A DNA stretch of 64,000 nucleotides from Eledone cirrhosa (lineage: Eukaryota): the NCBI GenBank assembly GCA_964016885.1, contig OZ024740.1:366296001-366360000 (forward strand). Reading direction: 5' to 3'. A program made the translations under genes and the position numbers. Shown here in pieces: positions 3,817 to 64,000 of this stretch. The notes beneath the pieces are model-generated. The model ran no database searches. It was not told the DNA's origin and saw only the letters and a list, made by a program, of their open reading frames with translations. How positions within the stretch are numbered: position 1 is the first letter of the stretch; every line of letters starts with the position of its first letter.

Positions 3817-4057
3817 TGTACACATGTGTATATGTATGCCAGTATGTATGTAAATGTATTTTATTCTGTTATCATTTTCCACATTTCTTTCCAATGAGCC
3901 AGTCTCCAACCCCACAAAAATACTCTTTTTAGGAATTCAAGCATCATCAACTTAGTAATCATATTCACATATATGAAAAAATATGGTGCGTTAGACAAAA
4001 ATACCTTGTTGTATAGAGTTCCACACAAACAAAATAGGTGTCAATACTAAATTTAGC

Positions 4058-7900: not shown

Positions 7901-8131
7901 GAGCCTTGTTGTCTTCTCGGATGTTGTATCTGCAATGTCCTGCAATTTAAAGGTAATTGGTAAGAAAATAAATATACAGCAACACAAAATATGTCTTGCT
8001 CAAGGACACAACATGCCACAGGTGATTGAACTCACAACCTTACAATTGTGAGTCAAAAACCCAAACAATCAAACCATGCATCTTCACAATATAATCATCA
8101 TTATCATTGTTTAACGTCCATTTTCCACTAT

Positions 8132-9772
8132 ATCATCATCATCATCATCATCATCGTTTAACGTCCATCTTCCACGCTTGCATGGGTTTGGATGGGAGTT
8201 TTCCCACTTGAGGCAAGAGTGGTTGTCTCGCTCGCATAGGACTGTCTGGCGGGTTTTCTATGGCTGGATGCCCTTCCTAACACCAACCACGTTTACAGTG
8301 TGGACTGGGAGGTTTTTACCGTCTTACCTACACGGCCACATTACAGCGTGGACTGTGTGTTGTTTTGTCGTGACACCTACATGACCTCATTTGTTTCGGA
8401 CTGGATGTTCTGGTACCAACATAATTTTACATCAAAAGGGGTGGTGTAGATGGGGTGCGGGTAGTGGGACGGGGGTGTATTTTTGTTAGAGGTGTCTACT
8501 GACTGTGGTAGGTTTCACTTTGTACTTAGGTAAGGCGGGTCTTCTGTATTACTGTGTAGCGCTAAAGATCTCGGTCCAGTGACATTGTCTTGGAGAGGTG
8601 TAAGTGTGTGAGGTCGGAATTTATCAAGTCGTCCCAGGTTTTTCTGGGTCTGCCTACTCCGTGGCTACCATCTATTTTTATCGCCCTGCACTTTTTTATA
8701 CAGCTGTCGTCTTTCATACGCATCACGTGATCATACCAACGTAGTCTTCTCTCGAGTAAACAACATCTGATCCCTCTTATTTCTAATTTCTCCCTTAGAT
8801 CGTTTAAGCTTTGCCGTTCACGTATATTACTATTACACATCCAGCGGAGTATGCAAGCTTCGTTCCTCTCCAGTCTGCGTATATCCTCTGCACACAATGC
8901 CCAGGTCTCACTGCCATGTAACATTGCTGTTCGTATGCAGGCATCATACAGCCTGCCTTTCATTTTTAGAGAGAAGCCTTTAGCGGCTAATAGTGGTATA
9001 AGCTCTCTGAACTTTTTCCATCCAGTTCTGACTCTAGCTACTGTACTTTCAGAGCACCCTCCACCACTGCTGATTTTGTCACCCAAGTAACGGAAGGTGT
9101 CCACTATTTCTATAGAACCATCTGTGCAATGGAATGAGCTAGTATTCTGTGGGCACTTGCTGCTACTTATTGCACCAGAGCACCGACCACATATAAAATC
9201 TATGTTCTTAGTTAGCTTACCTGTGATCCTACTACATCTTTTATGCACCCATACTTTGCATTTGGGACATAAAATGGAGTTTCTACCTACTCCTTTCCTA
9301 CACACTGAGCATGGCCATTTTCCGGATGGAACCGGTGCCCTATTTTCCTTCCTACAAACTAGAACTTTAGTCTTAGACAGGTTAATTTTAAGGCCTTTTG
9401 ATTCTAGGCCATGCTTCCATGTTTGGCCATCGATTCAGCTATGAGCGTTAGATCATCTGCGTATAGGAGTTCTCATGGGCAGCCGGTCTTGAACTCCACT
9501 GTTATAGCCTGAAGGGCAATAATAAATAGTAGGGGGCTAAGAACGGATCCCTGACGAACACCAACTTTTACGCTAAACTCTTCGGTATATTCGTTGTTAA
9601 TTCTAACCTTGCTGACTGTTTCTTTATACATGGCTTGTATAGCTCTCTCACAAGCCATTCATCAACACCTAGTTTTCTAAGAGCCCACCAGATAATGGAA
9701 CGGGGGACTCTGTCGAAGGCTTTCTCCAAGTCGACAAAAGCTATGTATAGGGGTTTACTTTTAGCTAGGTAG
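8132..9772 (-). mobile_element. 5'-truncated RTE-type LINE with RT core
   Basis: LYIAFVDLEKAFDRVPR, VGVRQGSVLSPLLF, LLYADDL, C4HC3 finger, FRYLG, RRLRWY. (GAT)n tail at 8132. Stops and an internal deletion. Confidence 0.95.
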
Positions 9773-16812: not shown

Positions 16813-16860
16813 CTACATACAGATATATGTATGTATATGTATATATATATATATATATAT

Positions 16861-17232
16861 TAGAAAGTGAGGTTTTTTTTTTTACAAATTGAAAAATAAC
16901 CGAGGTGTCCTACACGAGGGAAAGTATAAAGAAAAAGAGATGAAATCGAAAATGCAAATGGAGTCTTATTTTTTAAAAAAATATATATATTTATTTGGTT
17001 CCTTTACCGGTTTCGCAGTTCTTCTGCTTTTCAAAAGGTGAGTTGAGATGGAGGGTCTGTGGTTTTTCTCACATCTGAGTGTGAGAAAAACCACAGACCC
17101 TCCATCTCAACTCACCTTTTGAAAAGCAGAAGAACTGCGAAACCGGTAAAGGAACCAAATAAATATATATATTTAAAAAAAAAAAAAAGACTCCAGTTGC
17201 ATTTTCGATTTCATCTCTTTTTCTTTATATAT
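16861..17232. mobile_element. Foldback PLE-like mini-element
   Basis: ~150-bp near-perfect arms centred at ~17075. tgcGAAAccggTAaagga...aataaa. (TA)n flanks. Confidence 0.85.
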
Positions 17233-17246
17233 ATATATATATATAA

Positions 17247-17456
17247 GGTGTAGGAGACACGGTAAAAAGGTTCCCAGTCCACACTCTAAAGGTGGTTGGT
17301 GTTAGGAAGGGCATCCAGCTGTAGAAAACCTGCCAGATACACTTCCGTGAGAGTGAGACACGGTCTCACTACCATTCCTGCATCAAATGGAACAAAACTG
17401 TCCAACCCATGCAAGCGTGGAAGAAGGACATTAAATGATGATGATGATGATGATGA

Positions 17457-17460
<4 letters not shown>
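17247..17460 (+). mobile_element. RTE-related 3' tail / SINE fragment with (GAT)n
   Basis: ggttggtgttaggaagggcatccagctgtagaaaacctgcc ... aacccatgcaagcgtggaa ... (gat)n. Confidence 0.75.
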
Positions 17461-17510
<50 letters not shown>

Positions 17511-18229
17511 GGACGGTTGGAGGGTCACTGATGAAGGATTTACTTTTTCATATGTATCCCATTTGCAACGCGCAGCTCCATTATTATCATATTTACACAT
17601 ATTTTTTCTCCTGCTGCCACCCGTCTGTTTCGTTCTTTGTATATTTACCCTTTCTAGCAGTCTCTCTCTCTGTTAGCCTCCTCCTCAACTTTTACTCACT
17701 CATTCTCTGTCACTACCTCTCCTCCTCCTCCTCTTTCCTCCTCTTTCTTCCCGCTTGACCTGTCCGATTTCTTTTCTCGCGCGTTCTTGGCCAAGCCGGT
17801 ATGAAATTTTTTTTCTCTCTCTCTCTCTCGTCTGCGACTTCACAGAACTTATGTTTATCGAATTCGCAGACCAGACCCCTTCTTCTTCCCCCCGTTAGAC
17901 CTGTGCGAAATTCCTTCCTTGCTCACATTTCAACCAGGTTTGATGGTCTTTTGTCTCTTGTTCACGATTTCACCGAGTTTATATTCATAGAAATCTGGGA
18001 CTTGTCTCTTTCTTCTCACTTTCCGTTGCTTAAACCATTTTGTTTGTTCACCCTAACGTCCCCTTTATTTACGTGTCCCAACGACTTATTTTAGCCGTTG
18101 TTCGCACCAACCTGAGGTATATGGCCCTTAAAGCGATGAAATGCCTGGGACGGTTGGAGGGTCACTGATGAAGGACTTACTTTTTCATATGTATCCCATT
18201 TGCAACGCGCAGCTCCATTATTATCATAT
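17511..18229 (+). mobile_element. Non-coding terminally redundant element A (637-bp period, 82-bp direct repeat)
   Basis: 17511-17592 repeats at 18148-18229 with one mismatch. (TA)n on both sides. Pyrimidine-rich body. Structured motif at 18075-18176. Confidence 0.75.
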
Positions 18230-18260
18230 ATATATATATATATATATAATTATATATATA

Positions 18261-19410
18261 TAAGTAGCAGCAAGTACCCACAAAATACTAGCTCTTTCAA
18301 CTGCGCAGAGGGCTCTATAGAAATAGTGGACAGCTTCCGTTACCTGGGTGACAAAATCAGCAGTGGGGGAGGGTGCTCTGAAAGTACAGTAGCTAGAGTC
18401 AGAACTGGTTGGAAAAAGTTCAGAGAGCTTATACCACTATTAGCCGCTAAAGGGTTCTCCCTAAAAATGAAAGGCAGGCCGTATGATGCCTGCATACGAA
18501 CAGCAATGTTGCATGGCAGTGAGACCCGGGCATTGTGTGCAGAGGATATACGCAGACTAGAGAGGAACGAAGCTTGCATGCTCCGCTGGATGTGTAATAG
18601 TAATATACGTGAATGGCAAAGCATAAACGAACTAAGGAAAAAATTAGAAATAAGAGGGATCAGATGTTGTTTACTCGACAGAAGGCTACGTTGGTATGGA
18701 CACGTGATGCGCATGAAAGTCAATAGCTGTATAACAAAGTGCAGGGCAATAAAGATTGACGGTAGCCACGGAATAGGCAGACCTAGAAAAACCTGGGACG
18801 AGCTGATAAACTCCGACCTCACACACTTACACCTCTCCAAGACAATGTCACTGGACCGAGACCTTTGGCGGTACTCAGTAATAGAGAAGACCCGCCTTAC
18901 CTAAATACATAGTAAAACCTACTACAGCCAGTAGGCATCTCTAACAAAATACAGCCCCGTCCCACCACCCCCACCCCATCCACACCGCCCCCTTCTATGT
19001 AAAGTTATGTTGGTGCCACAAAATCCAGGCCGAAACAAATGAGATCGTGTAGGTGTCACGAAAAAAAAACACACAGTCTACGCTGTAATGTGGCCGTGTA
19101 GGCAACACGGTAAAAACGTCCCAGTCCCACACTGTAAATGTGGTTGGTGTTAGGAAGGGCATCCAGCTGTAGAAAACCTGCCAGACAGTCCACGCTGTAA
19201 TGTGGCCGTGTAGGCAACACGGTAAAAACCTCCCAGCCCCACACTGTAAATGTGGTTGGTGTTAGGAAGGGCATCCAACTGTAGAAAACCCGCCAGACAG
19301 TCCTATGCGAGCAAGACAACCACTCTTGCCTCAAGTGGGAAAACTCCCGTCCAAACCCATGCAAGCATGGAACACGGACGTTAAACGATGATGATGATGA
19401 TGATGATGAT
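18261..19410 (+). mobile_element. 5'-truncated RTE-type LINE with ~112-bp tandem duplication in the 3' UTR
   Basis: ORF 18200..18904 (FRYLG...RRLRWYGH...GRPRKTW). (GAT)n tail. Duplication ~19073-19184 / 19185-19296. Confidence 0.95.
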
Positions 19411-19689
19411 ATATATACATATATACACATACATATACATACATATACATACATATACACAAACACATACATACAAATACATACACACACATATGTATGT
19501 GTGTAAAACTCATTCTTAGATGTATTCATATGAACCTTGTTTAACTCTTAAATATATATATATATATATATTAAAGGACTTGAACATCTGAAACTACTTC
19601 GCTTTTCCTTATTCCATATTTACTCCGTCACTCCTATGTGGAAAAAGTATGTTGAGTGCTTGAATTGAATTGCATCAATGTTTACCCTA

Positions 19690-19724
<35 letters not shown>

Positions 19725-19758
19725 CATACACACACATATACATACACATACATATATA

Positions 19759-19900
19759 GTGGCTGCCAACTCGTTTTCGAGTACGGCCACTACTTTATAT
19801 CCATGTAGGAGAACCCTTACCGATGCGCTAAACGAGTGTGACTTTTTAGTCCAGCCAGCGACTTGAAAACTCTGGTACAAACACTACACTTGTGACAATT
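19759..19900 (-). mobile_element. 3' end of an RTE/BovB-like LINE with terminal C2H2 finger
   Basis: CHKCSVCTRVFKSLAGLKSHTRLAHR*, then a short UTR with a ctcgaaaacgag hairpin, ending in (TA)n. Confidence 0.7.
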
Positions 19901-20309
19901 ATTGACACATACATATACATACATACATACACACACATACATATACATACATATACATATATACACATACATATACATATACACACATACACATACATAT
20001 ACACACATACATATACACATACACATACATATACACATACACATACACATACATATACACATACACATACACATACATATACACACATACATATACATAC
20101 ATACATACACACACACACATATATATAAGAAAAAACATAAATATTATATATATAAAAAGCATAAATATTGTATATATAAAAATAAAAAGTTGGGAATACG
20201 ACAAATAATAAATAAATATTTAGTTTCTTAATTTGTTTGGCAAGATTCTTTATCTGAAAACGTGTGTTGAAACCGATATTGTTATACTTTGGGAGGGTCA
20301 TGTTGCCAA

Positions 20310-20597
20310 TATTTTGTTAGAGATGCCTACTGACTGTAGTAGGTTTTACTTTGTATTTAGGTAACGCGGGTCTTCTCTGTTACTGAGTACCGCCAAAGGT
20401 CTCGGTCCAGTGACATTGTCTTGGAGAGGTGTAAGTGTGTGAGGTCAGAATTTATCAGCTCGTCCCAGGTTTTTCTGGGTCTGCCTACTCCGTGGCTACC
20501 ATCTATCTTTATTGCCCTGCACTTTGTAATACAGCTGTCGTCTTTCATGCGCATCACGTGACCATACCAACGTAGCCTTCTCTCGAGTAAACAACAT
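20310..20597 (-). mobile_element. Internal RTE fragment
   Basis: RRLRWYGHVMRMKDD...GRPRKTW...KTRVT*. Confidence 0.9.
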
Positions 20598-20624
20598 TAT
20601 ATATATATATATATATATTTTCGC

Positions 20625-21358
20625 CCCCTCTGTCAGTTACACTTTCTCTCGACTGACCACTTCCTCGCACTTCCACTCACTCACTCTCTGTTTCTCCCCT
20701 TCTCACTTCCTCCCGTTTGGCTTACAGTGGGTCTCTTCTTGCTTACATCTCACTCAGGTCGGACGTCTGTACCTTTCGCTCATGAAATCCACCCAGCTTA
20801 TGCTGACCAGGACTACCATGTTGCTTGTTTTTTTCCTTTCTTTGGTTTGCTTTTATCCTTCTATGTTGTTCACTTGTCCCCCTCGCTTTACGCGATTTGC
20901 TGGTCCCAATAACATTTTTTTAGTTATTGCTCGCACCAACCTGAGGTATATTATTTTTAATGCGATGAAATACCAATGATGGTTGGAAAATCACTGACGA
21001 AGGACTATTTTTATCATATGTAACCCATGTGCAACCACGCAGTATTCTTCTTTCTTCTCATGTTTTTTATATATATTTACCTCGGCTGCGTTTGTCTGTT
21101 TCTCTCTTACTGCTTCCCCGTTCTCTCTGTTTCTCTCACCTTCTTTCCACCCCTCTGTCAGTTACACTTTCTCTCGACTGACCGCTTCCTCGCACTTTCA
21201 CTCACTCTCTGTTTCTCCCCTTCTCACTTCCTCCCGTTTGGCTTACAGTGGGTCTCTTCTTGCTTACATCTCACTCAGGTCGGACGTCTGTACCTTTCGC
21301 TCATGAAATCCACCCAGCTTATGCTGACCAGGACTACCATGTTGCTTGTTTTTTTCCT
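20625..21358 (+). mobile_element. Non-coding terminally redundant element B (~525-bp period, ~210-bp direct repeat)
   Basis: 20625-20837 repeats at 21150-21358. Shares the structured motif (20901-21007) with element A. (TA)n on the left. Confidence 0.7.
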
Positions 21359-21884
21359 GTGCAGAACACTCCTCTGGAGTATATTCCTTCAGCCGTATTA
21401 TGTGTGTATTTTGTAGATAAGGGTCATAGTAAGATGACCAATCCCAGCCCCTCTAATGATATATCCACTAAAGTACTAAATGACACTAGCTGAAATGATA
21501 ACCAATATGCCTTGGTAGCAGTGTATATATATGTTTGTGTTCATTTGTATGTTCATTTTCCTTATACCCTATCAAACCCCCAAGGAAGATATACCTGGAT
21601 AATAATTAATTGTGAGGAAGATGTTAAAAAGAGAGGATTTCAAGCTTTCCCAGGGAATGTTTGCTTATGTTTCACTGATTATGAAAAAGAAGGTTAGAAT
21701 CAAGCATGCAGGGATACATCTCTCTACATGACATTGATGATATTTACTCAGAATATATGCACACAGACATAATCTCCCCCCCTTCCTTTCTTGATACACC
21801 TACACACATATATATAGATCCTACATACACATACTCACAACATGTACTCTATATACTGGTAACAATGTTAGTAGAATGTCAACC

Positions 21885-25215: not shown

Positions 25216-26471
25216 ATCATCATCATCATCATCAACGTTTAACGTCCGTGTTCCACGCTTGCATGGGTTTGGACGGGGGTAGTCCCACTTGAGGCAAGAG
25301 TGATTGTCTTGCTCGCATAGGACTGTCTGGCAGGTTTTCTACAGTTGGATGCCCTTCCTAACACCAACCACATTTACAGTGTGGGTCTGGGAGGTTTTTA
25401 CCATGTTACCTACAAGGCCACATTACAGCGTGGACTGTGTGTTTTTTTGTCGTGACACCTACACGATCTCATTTGTTTCGGCCTGGATGGCGCGGCACCA
25501 ACATAACTTTACATAGAACGGGGTGGTGTGGATGGGGTGGGGGTGGTGGGACGGGGGGGGGGGTATTTTGTTAGAGATGCCTACTGGCTGTAGTAGGTTT
25601 TACTATGTATTTAGGTAAGGCGGGTCTTCTCTGTTACTGAGTACCGCCAAAGGTCTCGGTCCAGTGACATTGTCTTGGAGAGGTGTAAGTGTGTGAGGTC
25701 GGAGTTTATCAGCTCGTCCCAGGTTTTTCTAGGTCTGCCTATTCCGTGGCTACCGTCTATCTTTATTGCCCTGCACTTTGTTATACAGCTATCGACTTTC
25801 ATGCGCATCACGTGTCCATACCAACGTAGCCTTCTCTCGAGTAAACAACATCTGATCCCTCTTATTTCTAATTTTTTCCTTAGTTTGTTTATGCTTTGCC
25901 GTTCACGTATATTACTGTTACACATCCAGCGGAGCATGCAAGCTTCGTTCCTCTCTAGTCTGCGTATATCCTCTGCACACAATACCCAGGTCTCACTGCC
26001 ATGCAACATTGCTGTTTGTATGCAGGCATCATACAACCTGCCTTTCATTTTTAGGGAGAACCCTTTAGCAGCTAATAGTGGTATAAGCTCTCTGAACTTT
26101 TTCCAACCAGTTCTGACTCTAGCTACTGTACTTTCAGAGCACCCTCCCCCACTGCTGATTTTATCACCCAGGTAACGGAAACTGTCCACTATTTCTATAG
26201 AACCCTCTGCGCAATTGAAAGAGCTAGTATTTTGTGGGCACTTGCTGCTACTTATTGCACCAGAGCACCGGCCACATGTAAAATCTATGTTCTTAGTTAG
26301 CTTACCTGTGATCCCACTACATCTTTTATGCACCCATACTTTGCATTTAGGACATAAAATGGAGTTTCTACCTACGCCTTTCCTACACACCGAGCACGAC
26401 CATTTCCCAGAAGGGACCGCCGCCTTATATTCTTTCCTACAAACTAGAACTTTAGTCTTAGCCAGGTTAAT
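25216..26471 (-). mobile_element. 5'-truncated RTE-type LINE
   Basis: Intact 259-aa C-terminal ORF 25611..26390, full 3' UTR and (GAT)n tail. Confidence 0.95.
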
Positions 26472-48100: not shown

Positions 48101-48966
48101 TATTAGCTGCTAAAGGGTTCTCACTAAAAATGAAAGGCAGGTTGTACGATGCCTGCATACGAACAGCAATGCTGCATGGCAGTGAGACCTGGGCATTGTG
48201 TGCAGAGGATATACGCAGACTAGAGAGGAAGGAAGCTTGCATGCTCTGCTGCATGTGTAACAGTAATATACGTGAACGGCAAAGCATAAACGAACTAAGG
48301 AAAAAATTAGAGATAAGAGGGATCAGATGTTGTTTACTCGAGAGAAGGCTACGTTGGTATGGACACGTGATGCGCATGAAAGTCGATAGCTGTATAACAA
48401 AGTGCAGGGCAATAAAGATAGACGGTAGTCACGGAATAGGCAGACCTAGAAAAACCTGGAACGAGCTGATAAACTCCGACATCACACACTTACACCTCTC
48501 CAAGACAATGTCACTGGACCGAGACCTTTGGCGGTACTCAGTAACAGAGAAGACCCGCCTTACCTAAATATATAGTAAAACCTACTCCAGCCAGTAGGCA
48601 TCTCTAACAAAATACACCCCGTCCCACCACCACCACCCCCACCCCATCCACACCACCCCGTTCTATGTAAAGTTATGTTGGTGCCGCGCCATCGAGGCCG
48701 AAACAAATGAGATCGTGTAGGTGTCACGACAAAAAAACACACAGTCCACACTGTAATGTGGCCGTGTAGGCAACACGGTAAAAACCTCCCAGACCCACAC
48801 TGTAAATGTGGTTGGTGTTAGGAAGGGCATCCAACTGTAGAAAACCTGCCAGACAGTCCTATGCGAGCAAGACAATCACTCTTGCCTCAAGTGGGACTAC
48901 CCCCGTCCAAACCCATGCAAGCGTGGAACACGGACGTTAAACGTTGATGATGATGATGATGATGAT
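48101..48966 (+). mobile_element. 5'-truncated RTE-type LINE
   Basis: ORF 48055..48567, 3' UTR, (GAT)n tail. (TA)n flanks. Confidence 0.95.
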
Positions 48967-51069: not shown

Positions 51070-52386
51070 TCATCATCATCATCATCATCATCAACGTTTA
51101 ACGTCCGTGTTCCACGCTTGCATGGGTTTGGACGGGGGTAGTCCCACTTGAGGCAAGAGTGATTGTCTTGCTCGCATAGGACTGTCTGGCAGGTTTTCTA
51201 CAGTTGGATGCCCTTCCTAACACCAACCACATTTACAGTGTGGGTCTGGGAGGTTTTTACCGTGTTGCCTACACGGCCACATTACAGCGTGGACTGTGTG
51301 TTTTTTTTGTCGTGACACCTACACGATCTCATTTGTTTCGGCCTCGATGGCGCGGCACCAACATAACTTTACATAGAACGGGGTGGTGTGGATGGGGTGG
51401 GGGCGGGGGTGGTGGGACGGGGTGTATTTTGTTAGAGATGCCTACTGGCTGGAGTAGGTTTTACTATATATTTAGGTAAGGCGGGTCTTCTCTGTTACTG
51501 AGTACCGCCAAAGGTCTCGGTCCAGTGACATTGTCTTGGAGAGGTGTAAGTGTGTGATGTCGGAGTTTATCAGCTCGTCCCAGGTTTTCCTAGGTCTGCC
51601 TATTCCGTGACTACCGTCTATCTTTATTGCCCTGCACTTTGTTATACAGCTATCGACTTTCATGCGCATCACGTGTCCATACCAACGTAGCCTTCTCTCG
51701 AGTAAACAACATCTGATCCCTCTTATCTCTAATTTTTTCCTTAGTTCGTTTATGCTTTGCCGTTCACGTATATTACTGTTACACATCCAGCGGAGCATGC
51801 AAGCTTCGTTCCTCTCTAGTCTGCGTATATCCTCTGCACACAATGCCCAGGTCTCACTGCCGTGCAGCATTGCTGTTCGTATGCAGGCATCGTACAACCT
51901 GCCTTTCATTTTTAGTGAGAACCCTTTAGCAGCTAATAGTGGTATAAGCTCTCTGAACTTTTTCCATCCAGTTCTGACTCTAGCTACTGTACTTTCAGAG
52001 CACCCTCCCCCACTGCTGATTTTATCGCCCAGGTAACGGAAGCTGTCCACTATTTCTATAGAACCCTCTGCGCAATTGAAAGAGCTAGTAGTTTGTGGGC
52101 ACTTGCTGCTACTTATTGCACCAGAGCACCGGCCACATGTAAAATCTATGTTCTTAGTTAGCTTACCTGTGATCCCACTACATCTTTTATGCACCCATAC
52201 TTTGCATTTAGGACATAAAATGGAGTTTCTACCTACGCCTTTCCTACACACCGAGCACGACCATTTCCCAGAAGGGACCGCCGCCTTGTTTTCTTTCCTA
52301 CAAACTAGTACTTTGGTCTTAGCCAGGTTAATTTTAAGTCCTTTTGACTCTAGGCCGTGCTTCCATGTTTGGAATTTCTTCTCTAA
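51070..52386 (-). mobile_element. 5'-truncated RTE-type LINE
   Basis: Intact 259-aa C-terminal ORF 51472..52251, 3' UTR, (GAT)n tail. Confidence 0.95.
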
Positions 52387-60868: not shown

Positions 60869-63346
60869 TGTTCCCCCTCCATACACATACACACATGTAT
60901 ATCATGACTCATACACTATTCACTTCCCTGACATTTGTGTATTATTCTATGTACTATACATGCACCTTTGACGAGTTGTAGTGCATCTGAGCACTTTACA
61001 CAATAATTTCAATATATATATATATAATAATAATAATAATATTAATAATTGTAATCTCTTTATTTAAAGAAGAAGAAGAGGAAGAAGCAGCAAAATACGG
61101 GAGGAGGCAGATATTGTTTAGTCAGGCTGGTTGTAAAAGAAAGGTATGTGTTCAGATTGTCTGTGTAGGGAGCACACTATGAGGAAGGAAGACAAGATGA
61201 CAAGAGATAAAGATTGATAACTCCATCCCTGTTTTCATTTCCTCTGCTATTATCATAGAAAATATAGGTGAACTTCAACTTTCTAGTTGCTTTTATAGAT
61301 TGCAAACATGTGCCTGGGGGAGGGATTTGGTGGGCTGAGGTTTAAAAACCTAATTTATTCTATGTGAATGTCATATGGAAAGACCATATGACAAAGTAAT
61401 AATAGGTTTTAATTATATCAACGCTAGTACTTGTCTTATTTTATTAGCCCTGGAAAGGTGAAAGGTAAAGTTGACCTAGTGGGATTTGAACTGAATGTGG
61501 TGAAGTAATAATATTTAGCCACTAAGGGCAATTACATATATCATTGTTCATATAGCAGCCTATGCTATCGCTACCCCAATGAAATGAGCCAAGATGGTGT
61601 GGGAGAATGCTCTCTGGTGTACAGAACCCTAAGCATAAGGTACCTTGTGATCCCAATGGACAGAATAGAGAAAGCATTACTCTGGGGGATAGCAAGGGAG
61701 CTGCATTAAAATAGCCATTCCAACTTATAGGACTCATTCCAGCCTGTAGCCAACTCCACACTGATAGATATGAGTAGGGAAGTTGTTTAAGGACCAAAAA
61801 CACCTGAGGTCTCTACTACTACAGGTTCAATGATAATGGAAAGATTATGATTTTAAGTTTCATCAAAACCATCCTCAGCTGCTGAGGCTGATGCTGTATA
61901 GAGCTGAGTTCATGATTAATCATGTACAATATTTAGCTTGGATTTTAACTTGCTAAACTATTCTTTACACCATGACTAAGTAAGTTTACATGATAATGAT
62001 GATCATCCTCCTCATCATCACCATCATCATCAATATCAGCAGTAGCACCATCACACCCCCATTATCATCTATTCCTCCTCCTCCTCCTCCTCTTCCTCCT
62101 CCTCCTCATCATCATCATCACCATCACCATCACCATCATCACCATCATCATCATCATTGCTGCATACTAACATTGTTTTGTTTTCCTTGATGACTTGAGT
62201 TTGATCTGTCTTCAGCATAGTAAAAAAAAAAAAATCTCCATTCATCTTGATTTTTCATCATGTTGTGTGTGAGGTGTAACATTATCAGATCTAACCACAC
62301 TTCTTCCCATCATGTTATGTGTTTCTTAGGTCTTCTTCTACCATGATTACATTCCAATGCCTGCTTACAACACTTTTTCATTCATCAGGTTTTGTCTACT
62401 ACTCTTACATATCACTATCATGTAAAAGAAGCAGACGAAATCTCATGAATGAAAAACTTGTGAGCTGGCAGTGGAAAGCCACCAATGAAGCCTCTACATG
62501 GTTGTTCACTCTTCTAGAAATAGCAGCTAAATTTCTCTCATATCATGTAATTTTATAAAAAGGAAATATTGAATAATAAAGCAATCACAATAAACCTGTA
62601 ACACCTGGTGTAGTCATAAGGGTGATGTAATAACATAGCATTTCTTGGGTATTTTAAACCTGACTGAGCCCATCCCTTTCCAGGTCTGAATATATCCCAT
62701 GCTCTAATTATTCTGCTAATTTACCACCTCATATAAGTTCATAAGAAGATTCCTAGAAAATTACAATAAACCCAATTGTTATCAGAAGTATAGTGGAACA
62801 CATAATTCTCTTATACTTGTGAGTTAAGTTAAACGCTGCACTTCAAGCTAACAAGATATTCATCAATTTTATTGTAGTACTGAGTGAGGTGTACCACTAT
62901 GTAGTGTCTATTCACAGTTGAATCAAATAGGGTGCCTCCACCTGGTACCTGATCTGTTAGAAAGAATAGCTAAATAAAGCAGTACATTTTACATAAAGCA
63001 TTATGAGATAGGTAATAAATAAAGTGTTTGGAAAGTCGGTACAATATAGATAGAAATATAAAGGGGGTACTGAGGTAAAAGGAAGACAAAACAAAATAAT
63101 GTTTCTTTACCCAATATATTTCTTCATGATATTTCAAGATGAAGACCTTCTTTTCAAATAAATGTAGAAAAACGAAGTGTTCTGTTCTCATGAAGATTTC
63201 TTATGTTGTGTGAATGGTTGACAGTTGGATTGTACATGAATAGAGTATCATAAAAGCCACTCTGCTTCATGTAGCTCCATTCTATTGTTGATTAGTGGTC
63301 TCTTGCATGTTTAAAATTATCAACAATAGAACTGAGCTACATTGAA

Positions 63347-64000
63347 CAAAGTGGGTATTATGAAGCTCTGCCAAAGTGGGTATTATGAAGCTCTGCCAAA
63401 GTGGGTATTATGAAGCTCTACCAAAGTGGGTATTATGAAGCTCTGCCAAAGTGGGTATTATGAAGCTCTGCCAAAGTGGGTATTATGAAGCTCTGCCAAA
63501 GTGGATATTATGAAGCTCTGCCAAAGTGGGTATTATGAAGCTCTACCAAAGTGGGTATTATGAAGCTCTGCCAAAGTGGGTATTATGAAGCTCTGCCAAA
63601 GTGGGTATTATGAAGCTCTACCAAAGTGGGTATTATGAAGCTCTGCCAAAGTGGGTATTATGAAGCTCTGCCAAAGTGGGTATTATGAAGCTCTGCCAAA
63701 GTGGATATTATGAAGCTCTGCCAAAGTGGGTATTATGAAGCTCTACCAAAGTGGGTATTATGAAGCTCTGCCAAAGTGGGTATTATGAAGCTCTGCCAAA
63801 GTGGGTATTATGAAGCTCTGCCAAAGTGGGTATTATGAATCTATGCCAAAGTGGGTATTATGAAGCTCTGCCAAAGTGGATATTATGAAGCTCTGCCAAA
63901 GTGGGTATTATGAAGCTCTACCAAAGTGGGTATTATGAAGCTCTGCCAAAGTGGGTATTATGAAGCTCTGCCAAAGTGGGTATTATGAAGCTCTGCCAAA
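63347..64000. repeat. 25-bp minisatellite (AAAGTGGGTATTATGAAGCTCTGCC)n, at least 26 units, runs off the window
   Basis: Exact 25-bp period with recurrent single-base variants. Confidence 0.97.

Follow-up and report, generated by a model that had tools for sequence, protein, structure and literature searches.

The window, a stretch of 64,000 nucleotides from the genome of Eledone cirrhosa, holds two insertions of non-coding repeats, families A and B, each of which carries one copy of a compact RNA fold (Table 1). The two copies had been described in an earlier sequence-only reading as sharing a fold despite otherwise divergent sequence, but they are about 75% identical over 18067-18246, which comprises the fold and the sequence after it, and hence belong to related repeat families. 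Several other repeats lie nearby. A young LINE 3′ fragment ending in (GAT)n is inserted beside element A (18260-19410), and its relatives near 8130-9170, 25216-26255, 48101-48966 and 51072-52116 are 90-99% alike; we take these LINE fragments to be RTE-like. An inverted fragment pair of a Neptune-like Penelope 3′ end occupies 16814-17245, with the same sequence present at two of the genomic loci retrieved (L157 and L165), and a tandem array with a 25-nt period (63197-63996) reaches the end of the window.

Table 1. Repeat insertions in the window and the parts of the fold; positions are those of the window.
Feature	Positions	Strand	Remarks
Family A insertion	17511..18226	+	5′-truncated, just over one 637-nt non-coding unit; flanks (TA)n; unit restarts at 17511 and 18148
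Family B insertion	20619..21358	+	unit of ~525 nt; second unit stops at 21358
Penelope-like 'tail' of 39 nt, A	18188..18226	+	bounded by family A's two 3′ end points
Whole fold, copy A (putative permuted hammerhead)	18075..18176	+	closed by helix 18075-18078/18173-18176 (GTCC/GGAC)
Hairpin arm of stem II junction, A	18079..18100	+	strands 18079-18083/18096-18100; missing in family E
Distal stem II, 5′ strand, A	18102..18105 (TCGC)	+	partner 18133-18136 (GCGA)
I-II interaction helix, 5′ strand, A	18107..18112 (CCAACC)	+	partner 18152-18157 (GGTTGG)
Putative kink-turn, non-bulged strand, A	18113..18115	+	bulged strand 18146-18151; GA opposite 3-nt bulge plus GA
Block S, A	18116..18121	+	stem III 5′ strand 18116-18119, U16.1 18120, H17 18121
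Stem I, 5′ strand, A	18122..18128	+	partner 18158-18164
Block G, A	18133..18145	+	stem II 3′ strand; 11.1 = 18137; G12-A15.1 = 18138-18141; stem III 3′ strand 18142-18145
Block C, A	18158..18172	+	stem I 3′ strand; C3-A9 = 18165-18171; 10.1 = 18172
Whole fold, copy B (putative permuted hammerhead)	20901..21007	+	GAAA 20967-20970, CUGANGA 20994-21000

The repeats are abundant in the 3.0-Gb genome, where a pattern over the 5′ half of the fold finds 4,268 matches, as against 3 in the control. Copies of A are 98-100% identical over 156 nt (best 40 of 1,857 candidates) and those of B 94-100% identical (best 40 of 112 candidates). They consist of tandem non-coding units with one putative ribozyme each, start at variable 5′ positions and terminate in (TA)n. 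The unit measures 630-706 nt in A, about 500-535 nt in B and 455-669 nt in other families, and in the loci examined families A to H encode no protein.

The sequence-only reading had placed a set of helices in both copies, and its coordinates for them are confirmed, but it had interpreted the fold as a hammerhead half-core lacking a correctly placed GAAA partner. A GAAA is in fact correctly placed, as G12-A13-A14-A15.1 directly before a stem III strand, and a 7-bp stem I had been overlooked. The full hammerhead core is thus present, that is CUGANGA, GAAA, U16.1 and H17, plus stems I and III. C3-U4-G5-A6-N7-G8-A9 directly follows stem I in A and in B, U16.1-H17 sits between stems III and I, and stem I is formed beside the predicted cut by the seven bases after H17, which pair with the seven before C3. 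Its sequence is TGGCCCT/AGGGTCA in A, TGATTTT/AAAATCA in most B copies and TGGTCTT/AAGATCA in a third family; the B copy in the window has a mismatch at the second pair (20952) that is absent from most B copies. Two elements of the earlier description are real but had been assigned differently. The ggtat/atrcc helix is stem III, and what had been read as its loop contains the GAAA, while the crossing tcgc/gcga helix, described as a pseudoknot, would constitute most of stem II.

The blocks follow one another in the order S (18116-18128), G (18133-18145) and C (18158-18172), or cleavage site, GAAA and CUGANGA, and this order is no circular permutation of hammerhead types I-III (CGS, GSC and SCG). 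The earlier reading had named intact copies that form an ordinary hammerhead as a refuting outcome; the order here is none of those of types I-III, and Rfam gives no hammerhead match in the window. The predicted cut sites are 18121/18122 in A and 20950/20951 in B. We are highly confident that the fold is derived from the hammerhead and is not a new ribozyme class, and, as judged from sequence, self-cleavage at the predicted site is quite probable. The earlier proposal of a candidate new ribozyme therefore survives insofar as the fold covaries and is a likely ribozyme, but the class is not new, being a hammerhead in the S-G-C order (PMC10085705).

The core pattern, 17 letters with defined spacing, has two matches in the window, namely A and B, and two were reached in none of 100 shuffles. 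Among 31 copies at loci L061-L090, which had been chosen by a pattern over other parts of the fold and G12, the core is intact in 29. An Rfam scan, one of the checks put forward in the sequence-only reading, gave no family in the window at gathering score, and with E<=10 over 17400-21400 the only match inside A or B is a weak one to a C/D snoRNA, which spans 20950-20991 and scores 20.8 bits where the cut-off is 65 (E 9.4). Several other assignments were considered and rejected. A type II hammerhead with GTCC-CAA as its G block would have neither G12 nor, in that register, stem I, and a type I hammerhead that uses the sequence downstream of CUGANGA would lack a GAAA in that stretch. By eye, the strand order does not fit the consensus structures of HDV-like, twister or pistol folds; a box C/D snoRNA and a SECIS element have no Rfam support; and a fold on the minus strand (z −1.73 and −2.40) is at odds with core motifs that read on the plus strand.

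Could the sequence that A and B share simply reflect their shared ancestry as repeats, without selection on structure? Their identity of about 75% would be compatible with this, as would single-sequence folding, in which A is no better than shuffled sequences (z −0.72; B, z −2.64) when folded with a program that cannot form crossing helices. For copy A a competing nested fold reaches −29.0 kcal/mol, versus −14.0 for the nested part of the model with its crossing helices uncounted. This explanation is nevertheless extremely improbable in view of the compensatory changes at 20 of 22 pairs and the metagenome and viral negative controls described below, and of the same fold recurring with other stems in other species, as read by eye.

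The comparison used a 17-letter core pattern, made of single-stranded landmarks only and designed to leave out most A, B and C copies, which gave 167 matches in the genome versus 4 in the control. To 30 loci from these matches 40 regions were added, namely 39 that were judged by eye, among 70 others listed, to be neither A, B nor C, and one that was retrieved again; additional families, whose stems differ, are present among them. When copies were admitted on fixed spacing alone, chimeric ones included, 194 matches were reduced to 107 distinct copies and then to 23 representatives under 85% identity. In the 107 distinct copies, position 17, which the descriptor leaves free, is A in 82, C in 20, T in 4 and G in 1, and is thus the non-G base of the hammerhead in 106. 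Stem I (133 of 161 cells paired), the I-II helix (97/138) and stem III (59/92) each exceeded all 1000 shuffles in the 23 representatives. The distal stem II strand is the weakest helix (58 of 92 cells; equalled or exceeded in 17 of 1000 shuffles), and the 10.1-11.1 pair can form in 19 of the 23 (8 of 1000 shuffles).

Eight of the 23 were dropped as truncated, chimeric or deleted and five intact copies were added, giving 20 natural copies that MAFFT aligned over 71 columns without gaps; these rows represent some 7-9 families, and the shuffles ignore relatedness. In this alignment 87.3% of 440 cells are paired, compared with 61.5% after shuffling and 27-47% when the strands are slid, and at 20 of 22 pairs both partners have changed. 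Double changes affect all seven pairs of stem I (89% paired), five of six in the I-II helix (92%), all four in stem III (85%) and three of four in the distal stem II helix TCGC/GCGA (81% of cells). U16.1, GAAA, CUGA-GA and the kink-turn GA are invariant, which is partly forced by the descriptor. The covariation that the sequence-only reading had called for is thus found, its two nested helices alone being 89% paired. As a negative control, matches to a single 3′ pattern were scored for at least 13 of 17 pairs, which 38 of 79 matches in the genome attained (the 79 including truncated copies and one duplicate), versus 1 of 116 in metagenomes and 0 of 93 in viral sequences; the scans of metagenomes (6 of 64 parts) and viruses gave no convincing homologue.

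Two further observations were made at the retrieved loci. A repeat family with a hammerhead core in canonical order occurs at L140 (minus, near 438), L143 (plus, near 850) and L518 (minus), and the resemblance of its block C and stem II start to those of A may mark a possible source or be a coincidence. At L283 (minus, near 3967) part of a ribozyme core has been amplified into a short tandem run.

After A9 there is a single base able to pair with 11.1, beyond which the strand runs into the closing helix. This single pair is present in 16 of the 20 aligned copies (UA, UG, CG or AU) and is replaced by A-A in family D. Stem II would consist of the one pair beside A9 and a strand supplied from the far 5′ side, at a junction closed by GTCC/GGAC that is four-way in families A, B, C, D and F and three-way in E, which is without the hairpin. 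The strands of stem III reach the I-II helix via a three-base bulge and tandem GA pairs, and this kink-turn-like motif, pointed out in the earlier reading, is present in both A and B. A kink-turn comprises a three-nucleotide bulge followed by tandem GA/AG pairs, between two helices, and by this rule the motif would be a kink-turn of predicted geometry. By it stem III would be bent back against the I-II helix, so that two helix ends would meet that lie far apart in the hammerhead crystal structure (Eckert 2023, PMC10085705).

What the kink-turn might do bears on the earlier proposal, in which the fold is either a ribozyme of a new class or a site of box C/D type for the binding of Snu13/L7Ae. 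The kink-turn of B matches the letters of the box C/D consensus, and the fold belongs to no Rfam family, but the entire hammerhead core maps onto it, its stems covary, and the kink-turn itself is variable. Families vary in the bulge and in the pair next to the tandem GA, family D has T in place of the non-bulged G, family G has a different strand, and coral and squid Naiads, which are Penelope-like elements considered below, keep the core without any kink-turn (by eye). We regard a new class, or a site whose function is to bind protein, as very unlikely. With the bulge and flanking pair varying, a purely structural role of the kink-turn is at least as likely as protein binding, and with the coral and squid cores in addition, the kink-turn looks accessory to the hammerhead.

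In the literature searched, hammerheads in non-circular orders are reported once, from metatranscriptomes and metagenomes without a known host, and type SGC, which was seen in metatranscriptomes alone, was named by Eckert 2023, where five examples cleave in vitro at the analogous site; according to the available text of that study, genomes of known organisms contain no such RNA except for one bacterial GCS candidate (PMC10085705). The present fold shares with type SGC (HRIMA-1 and variants) the S-G-C order, the full core and the I-II helix, and its linker from stem I to stem II is 3-5 nt, which is typically 3 in type SGC (PMC10085705). Unlike type SGC, where block C is uninterrupted and has its 3′ part in stem II, the stem II proposed here gives way after a single pair to a three- or four-way junction; there block C enters the closing helix, and the 5′ side supplies the I-II strand and what remains of stem II. 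The kink-turn between stem III and the I-II helix is a further difference, as 'kink' occurs 0 times in the supplement of PMC10085705; neither 'octopus' nor 'acropora' occurs there. The setting differs as well, retroelements of an animal genome as against no genome of a known organism for published SGC RNAs (PMC10085705).

There is a precedent for a divided stem II in the PK hammerhead, which is active with a helix II made of the G10.1-C11.1 pair and a long-range helix (Zhan et al. 2024, PMC11300833). It differs in having a pistol-like pseudoknot, a separate stem-loop and an A-minor triplex, and the accessible portion of that report mentions no kink-turn. A second publication using 'type-SGC' was not found in the non-subscription literature searched, nor does SGC or CSG appear in the available part of PMC13725137. 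On the literature searched, this form of the hammerhead is new, and it lies in a setting from which hammerheads had been reported absent. Its kink-turn and its helical junction within stem II extend the hammerhead architecture and show that block C can be interrupted, and its occurrence at thousands of copies in an animal genome gives a non-circular hammerhead a biological setting.

Penelope-like elements have a tail of 30-40 bp, inverted 5′ copies and, in Naiads, a preference for (TA)n (PMC8557442), and the tail has been traced to two internal start sites of reverse transcription (PMC11167929). At 30 family A loci, two of them overlapping, the position of copy ends was read relative to an anchor. 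Of 39 same-strand copies, 28 have their end 48-58 nt beyond it, 1 stops early, and 10 continue with no (TA)n end, in most cases into the following unit; for inverted copies the distance is 11 nt in 9 of 12. The gap of 39 nt between the two end points agrees with the 30-40 bp of the Penelope-like tail (PMC8557442). Family B has a single end class, with 1 inverted copy among 34.

Cleavage of tandem transcripts after 18121 or 20950 would release monomers of 0.45-0.7 kb, whose ends would stay clamped by about 18 bp (the closing helix, distal stem II, the I-II helix and stem III), and such clamping would make circularisation easier. Reverse transcription by a Penelope-like enzyme would begin at two internal sites, one at either end of the tail, and would continue beyond one unit length into (TA)n targets. 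The case for a circular template is evenly balanced. In most internal units the sequence across the predicted cut is unaltered, and this fits precise ligation into a circle and an uncut multimer equally well. The 5′ ends show a weak excess at the predicted cut, with 129 matches there versus 61 at a control site 30 nt downstream, counted in unequal windows. When 30 loci each were classified for cut and control, 9 of 20 5′-end or inversion events fell within one base of the cut, versus 2 of 22 for the control (p 0.013); the same comparison at two looser thresholds gave p 0.20 and 0.53, and the TATA at the cut resembles the target.

The weakness of this signal is one of several points in favour of a different explanation, in which the fold descends from a hammerhead but has lost cleavage, or retains it only in the protein-bound state, and is kept as a recognition handle for the reverse transcriptase beside the tail. 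Stem II is irregular, the fold sits immediately upstream of both end points, and activity may be doubted given the competing nested fold of copy A and the stem I mismatch of copy B in the window. For an Anolis element it has been reported that hammerhead mutants inserted normally in vitro, that cleavage needed protein and, in the portion of the report available, that no RNA-seq reads ended at the cut (PMC11167929). On the other side, the catalytic nucleotides stay invariant while the stems turn over (in part a consequence of the descriptor), position 17, free to vary, avoids G almost throughout the distinct copies, and the core pattern recovers other families in large excess over its control. 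This alternative is unlikely. A self-cutting hammerhead, rearranged, with one predicted self-cut per repeat unit and residing in non-coding Penelope-like repeats likely of Naiad descent, is on the whole fairly probable.

Such repeats resemble the non-LTR retrozymes of animals, which also consist of tandem non-coding units with one hammerhead each and are linked to Penelope elements, and their unit lengths fall within the 51-972 bp reported for animal retrozymes (bioRxiv 10.64898/2026.07.22.740005). The hammerheads of retrozymes and Penelope-like elements are, however, of type I, the minimal forms of the latter included (PMC4209133), and often have a tiny stem III that needs a dimer, whereas the full stem III found here has 4 bp. 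The 2026 retrozyme preprint searched for type I alone (bioRxiv 10.64898/2026.07.22.740005), and type I descriptors would be expected to miss the present form, given its non-circular order and full stem III. By the same token, animal ribozyme censuses that used type I-III descriptors would have missed this set.

Among Penelope-like elements it is the Naiads that come closest, sharing the (TA)n targets, the tail and inverted 5′ copies (Craig 2021, PMC8557442), and the fold can be read by eye at the 3′ ends of octopus Naiads. They differ in that families A to H are without protein and that A copies are 97-99% identical in their best matches, while cephalopod Naiads have been called long inactive (PMC8557442). 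Naiads were described as lacking a canonical hammerhead, with some, for example Naiad_Ovul ('HHR_half_core') and Naiad_Esco, having a hammerhead 'half core' that was left unexplained (Craig 2021, PMC8557442). For comparison, the last ~300 bases of 52 of 54 consensus sequences (PMC8557442 File_S5) were parsed by eye, and all assignments that follow are of this kind.

The S-G-C order is found in seven Naiad consensus 3′ ends, from octopus, squid, coral and ctenophore. The Obim and Ovul Naiads have the full fold with kink-turn, built from stems different from those of A and B (III, ATGG/CCAT; I, CTGCCC/GGGCAG; I-II helix, CGGAT/ATCCG), and in these octopus sequences the base after A9 cannot pair with 11.1. 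Three near-identical Acropora Naiads have the same order without the kink-turn; the Euprymna Naiad likewise has an S-G-C core without it and a stem II that is not clearly readable, and in the Beroe Naiad stem I is just 2 bp. Six nematode Naiads (Naiad-1/2/3_Nbra, Hcon, Hpol and Asuum) are of type CSG, showing all three stems (I, II, III) along with a long I-II helix, an order previously represented by two sequences, both metagenomic (Eckert 2023, PMC10085705). The remaining Naiad 3′ ends have different motifs or none in the last ~300 bases. In the Naiad-1_Movir, Bpla, Mphi, Scon and Mmer sequences the 3′ ends show candidate twister-like motifs, as judged against the twister consensus. The CGi, Sglo, Olur, Tgra, Pmar, Skow and Pfla Naiads have in common a structured-looking 3′ motif that may be a further ribozyme, and in the part of the Sdum, Smim and Dst sequences available GAAA and CUGANGA occur in other orders, possibly further permutations.

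A link between the repeats and Naiads is thus likely, as suggested by these consensus sequences of other species, and the rearranged order likely explains why hammerheads were reported absent from Naiads, which would answer the puzzle left by Craig 2021 (PMC8557442). In the non-subscription literature searched on Naiads and ribozymes the fold is not reported. A more general proposition is that Naiads and their non-coding passengers across animals standardly carry active non-circular hammerheads, junction-opened S-G-C forms in cephalopods, corals and a ctenophore and CSG forms in nematodes, and that the octopod form is clamped by its kink-turn, makes circles and is possibly gated by a protein of the L7Ae family; we give it the same chance of being right as of being wrong.

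The element that would mobilise the repeats was sought in the same genome. Motif patterns found no intact Naiad there, only broken remnants: a reverse transcriptase motif pattern matched six loci, those read contain broken Naiad-like reverse transcriptase remnants (octopus-like at L518-L522), and at none of the six is the fold linked to them. The resemblance of these remnants to published octopus Naiads, judged by eye, and a SINE point to an octopod as the probable host. The ribozyme motif of octopus Naiads had 0 matches in the genome with two mismatches allowed. A DKA-motif pattern was discarded, as it did not fit the octopus motif and gave one chance match. In a search of the GIY-YIG family, with 150 of 10,596 candidates scored, the fold was absent from the 3′ regions examined, as it was from those of a young family with a C-terminal endonuclease, near which copies of the fold are separate insertions. 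The genome does contain Penelope-like families that have long open frames and finish in (TA)n, and these could serve as the mobilising partner. One very abundant young Penelope-like family with a C-terminal GIY-YIG domain (protein P0001, loci L121-L156) has 31,791 candidates, the best 150 of which are 95-100% identical; its copies end at two 3′ points, and their 3′ motif resembles a hammerhead in which the core is altered.
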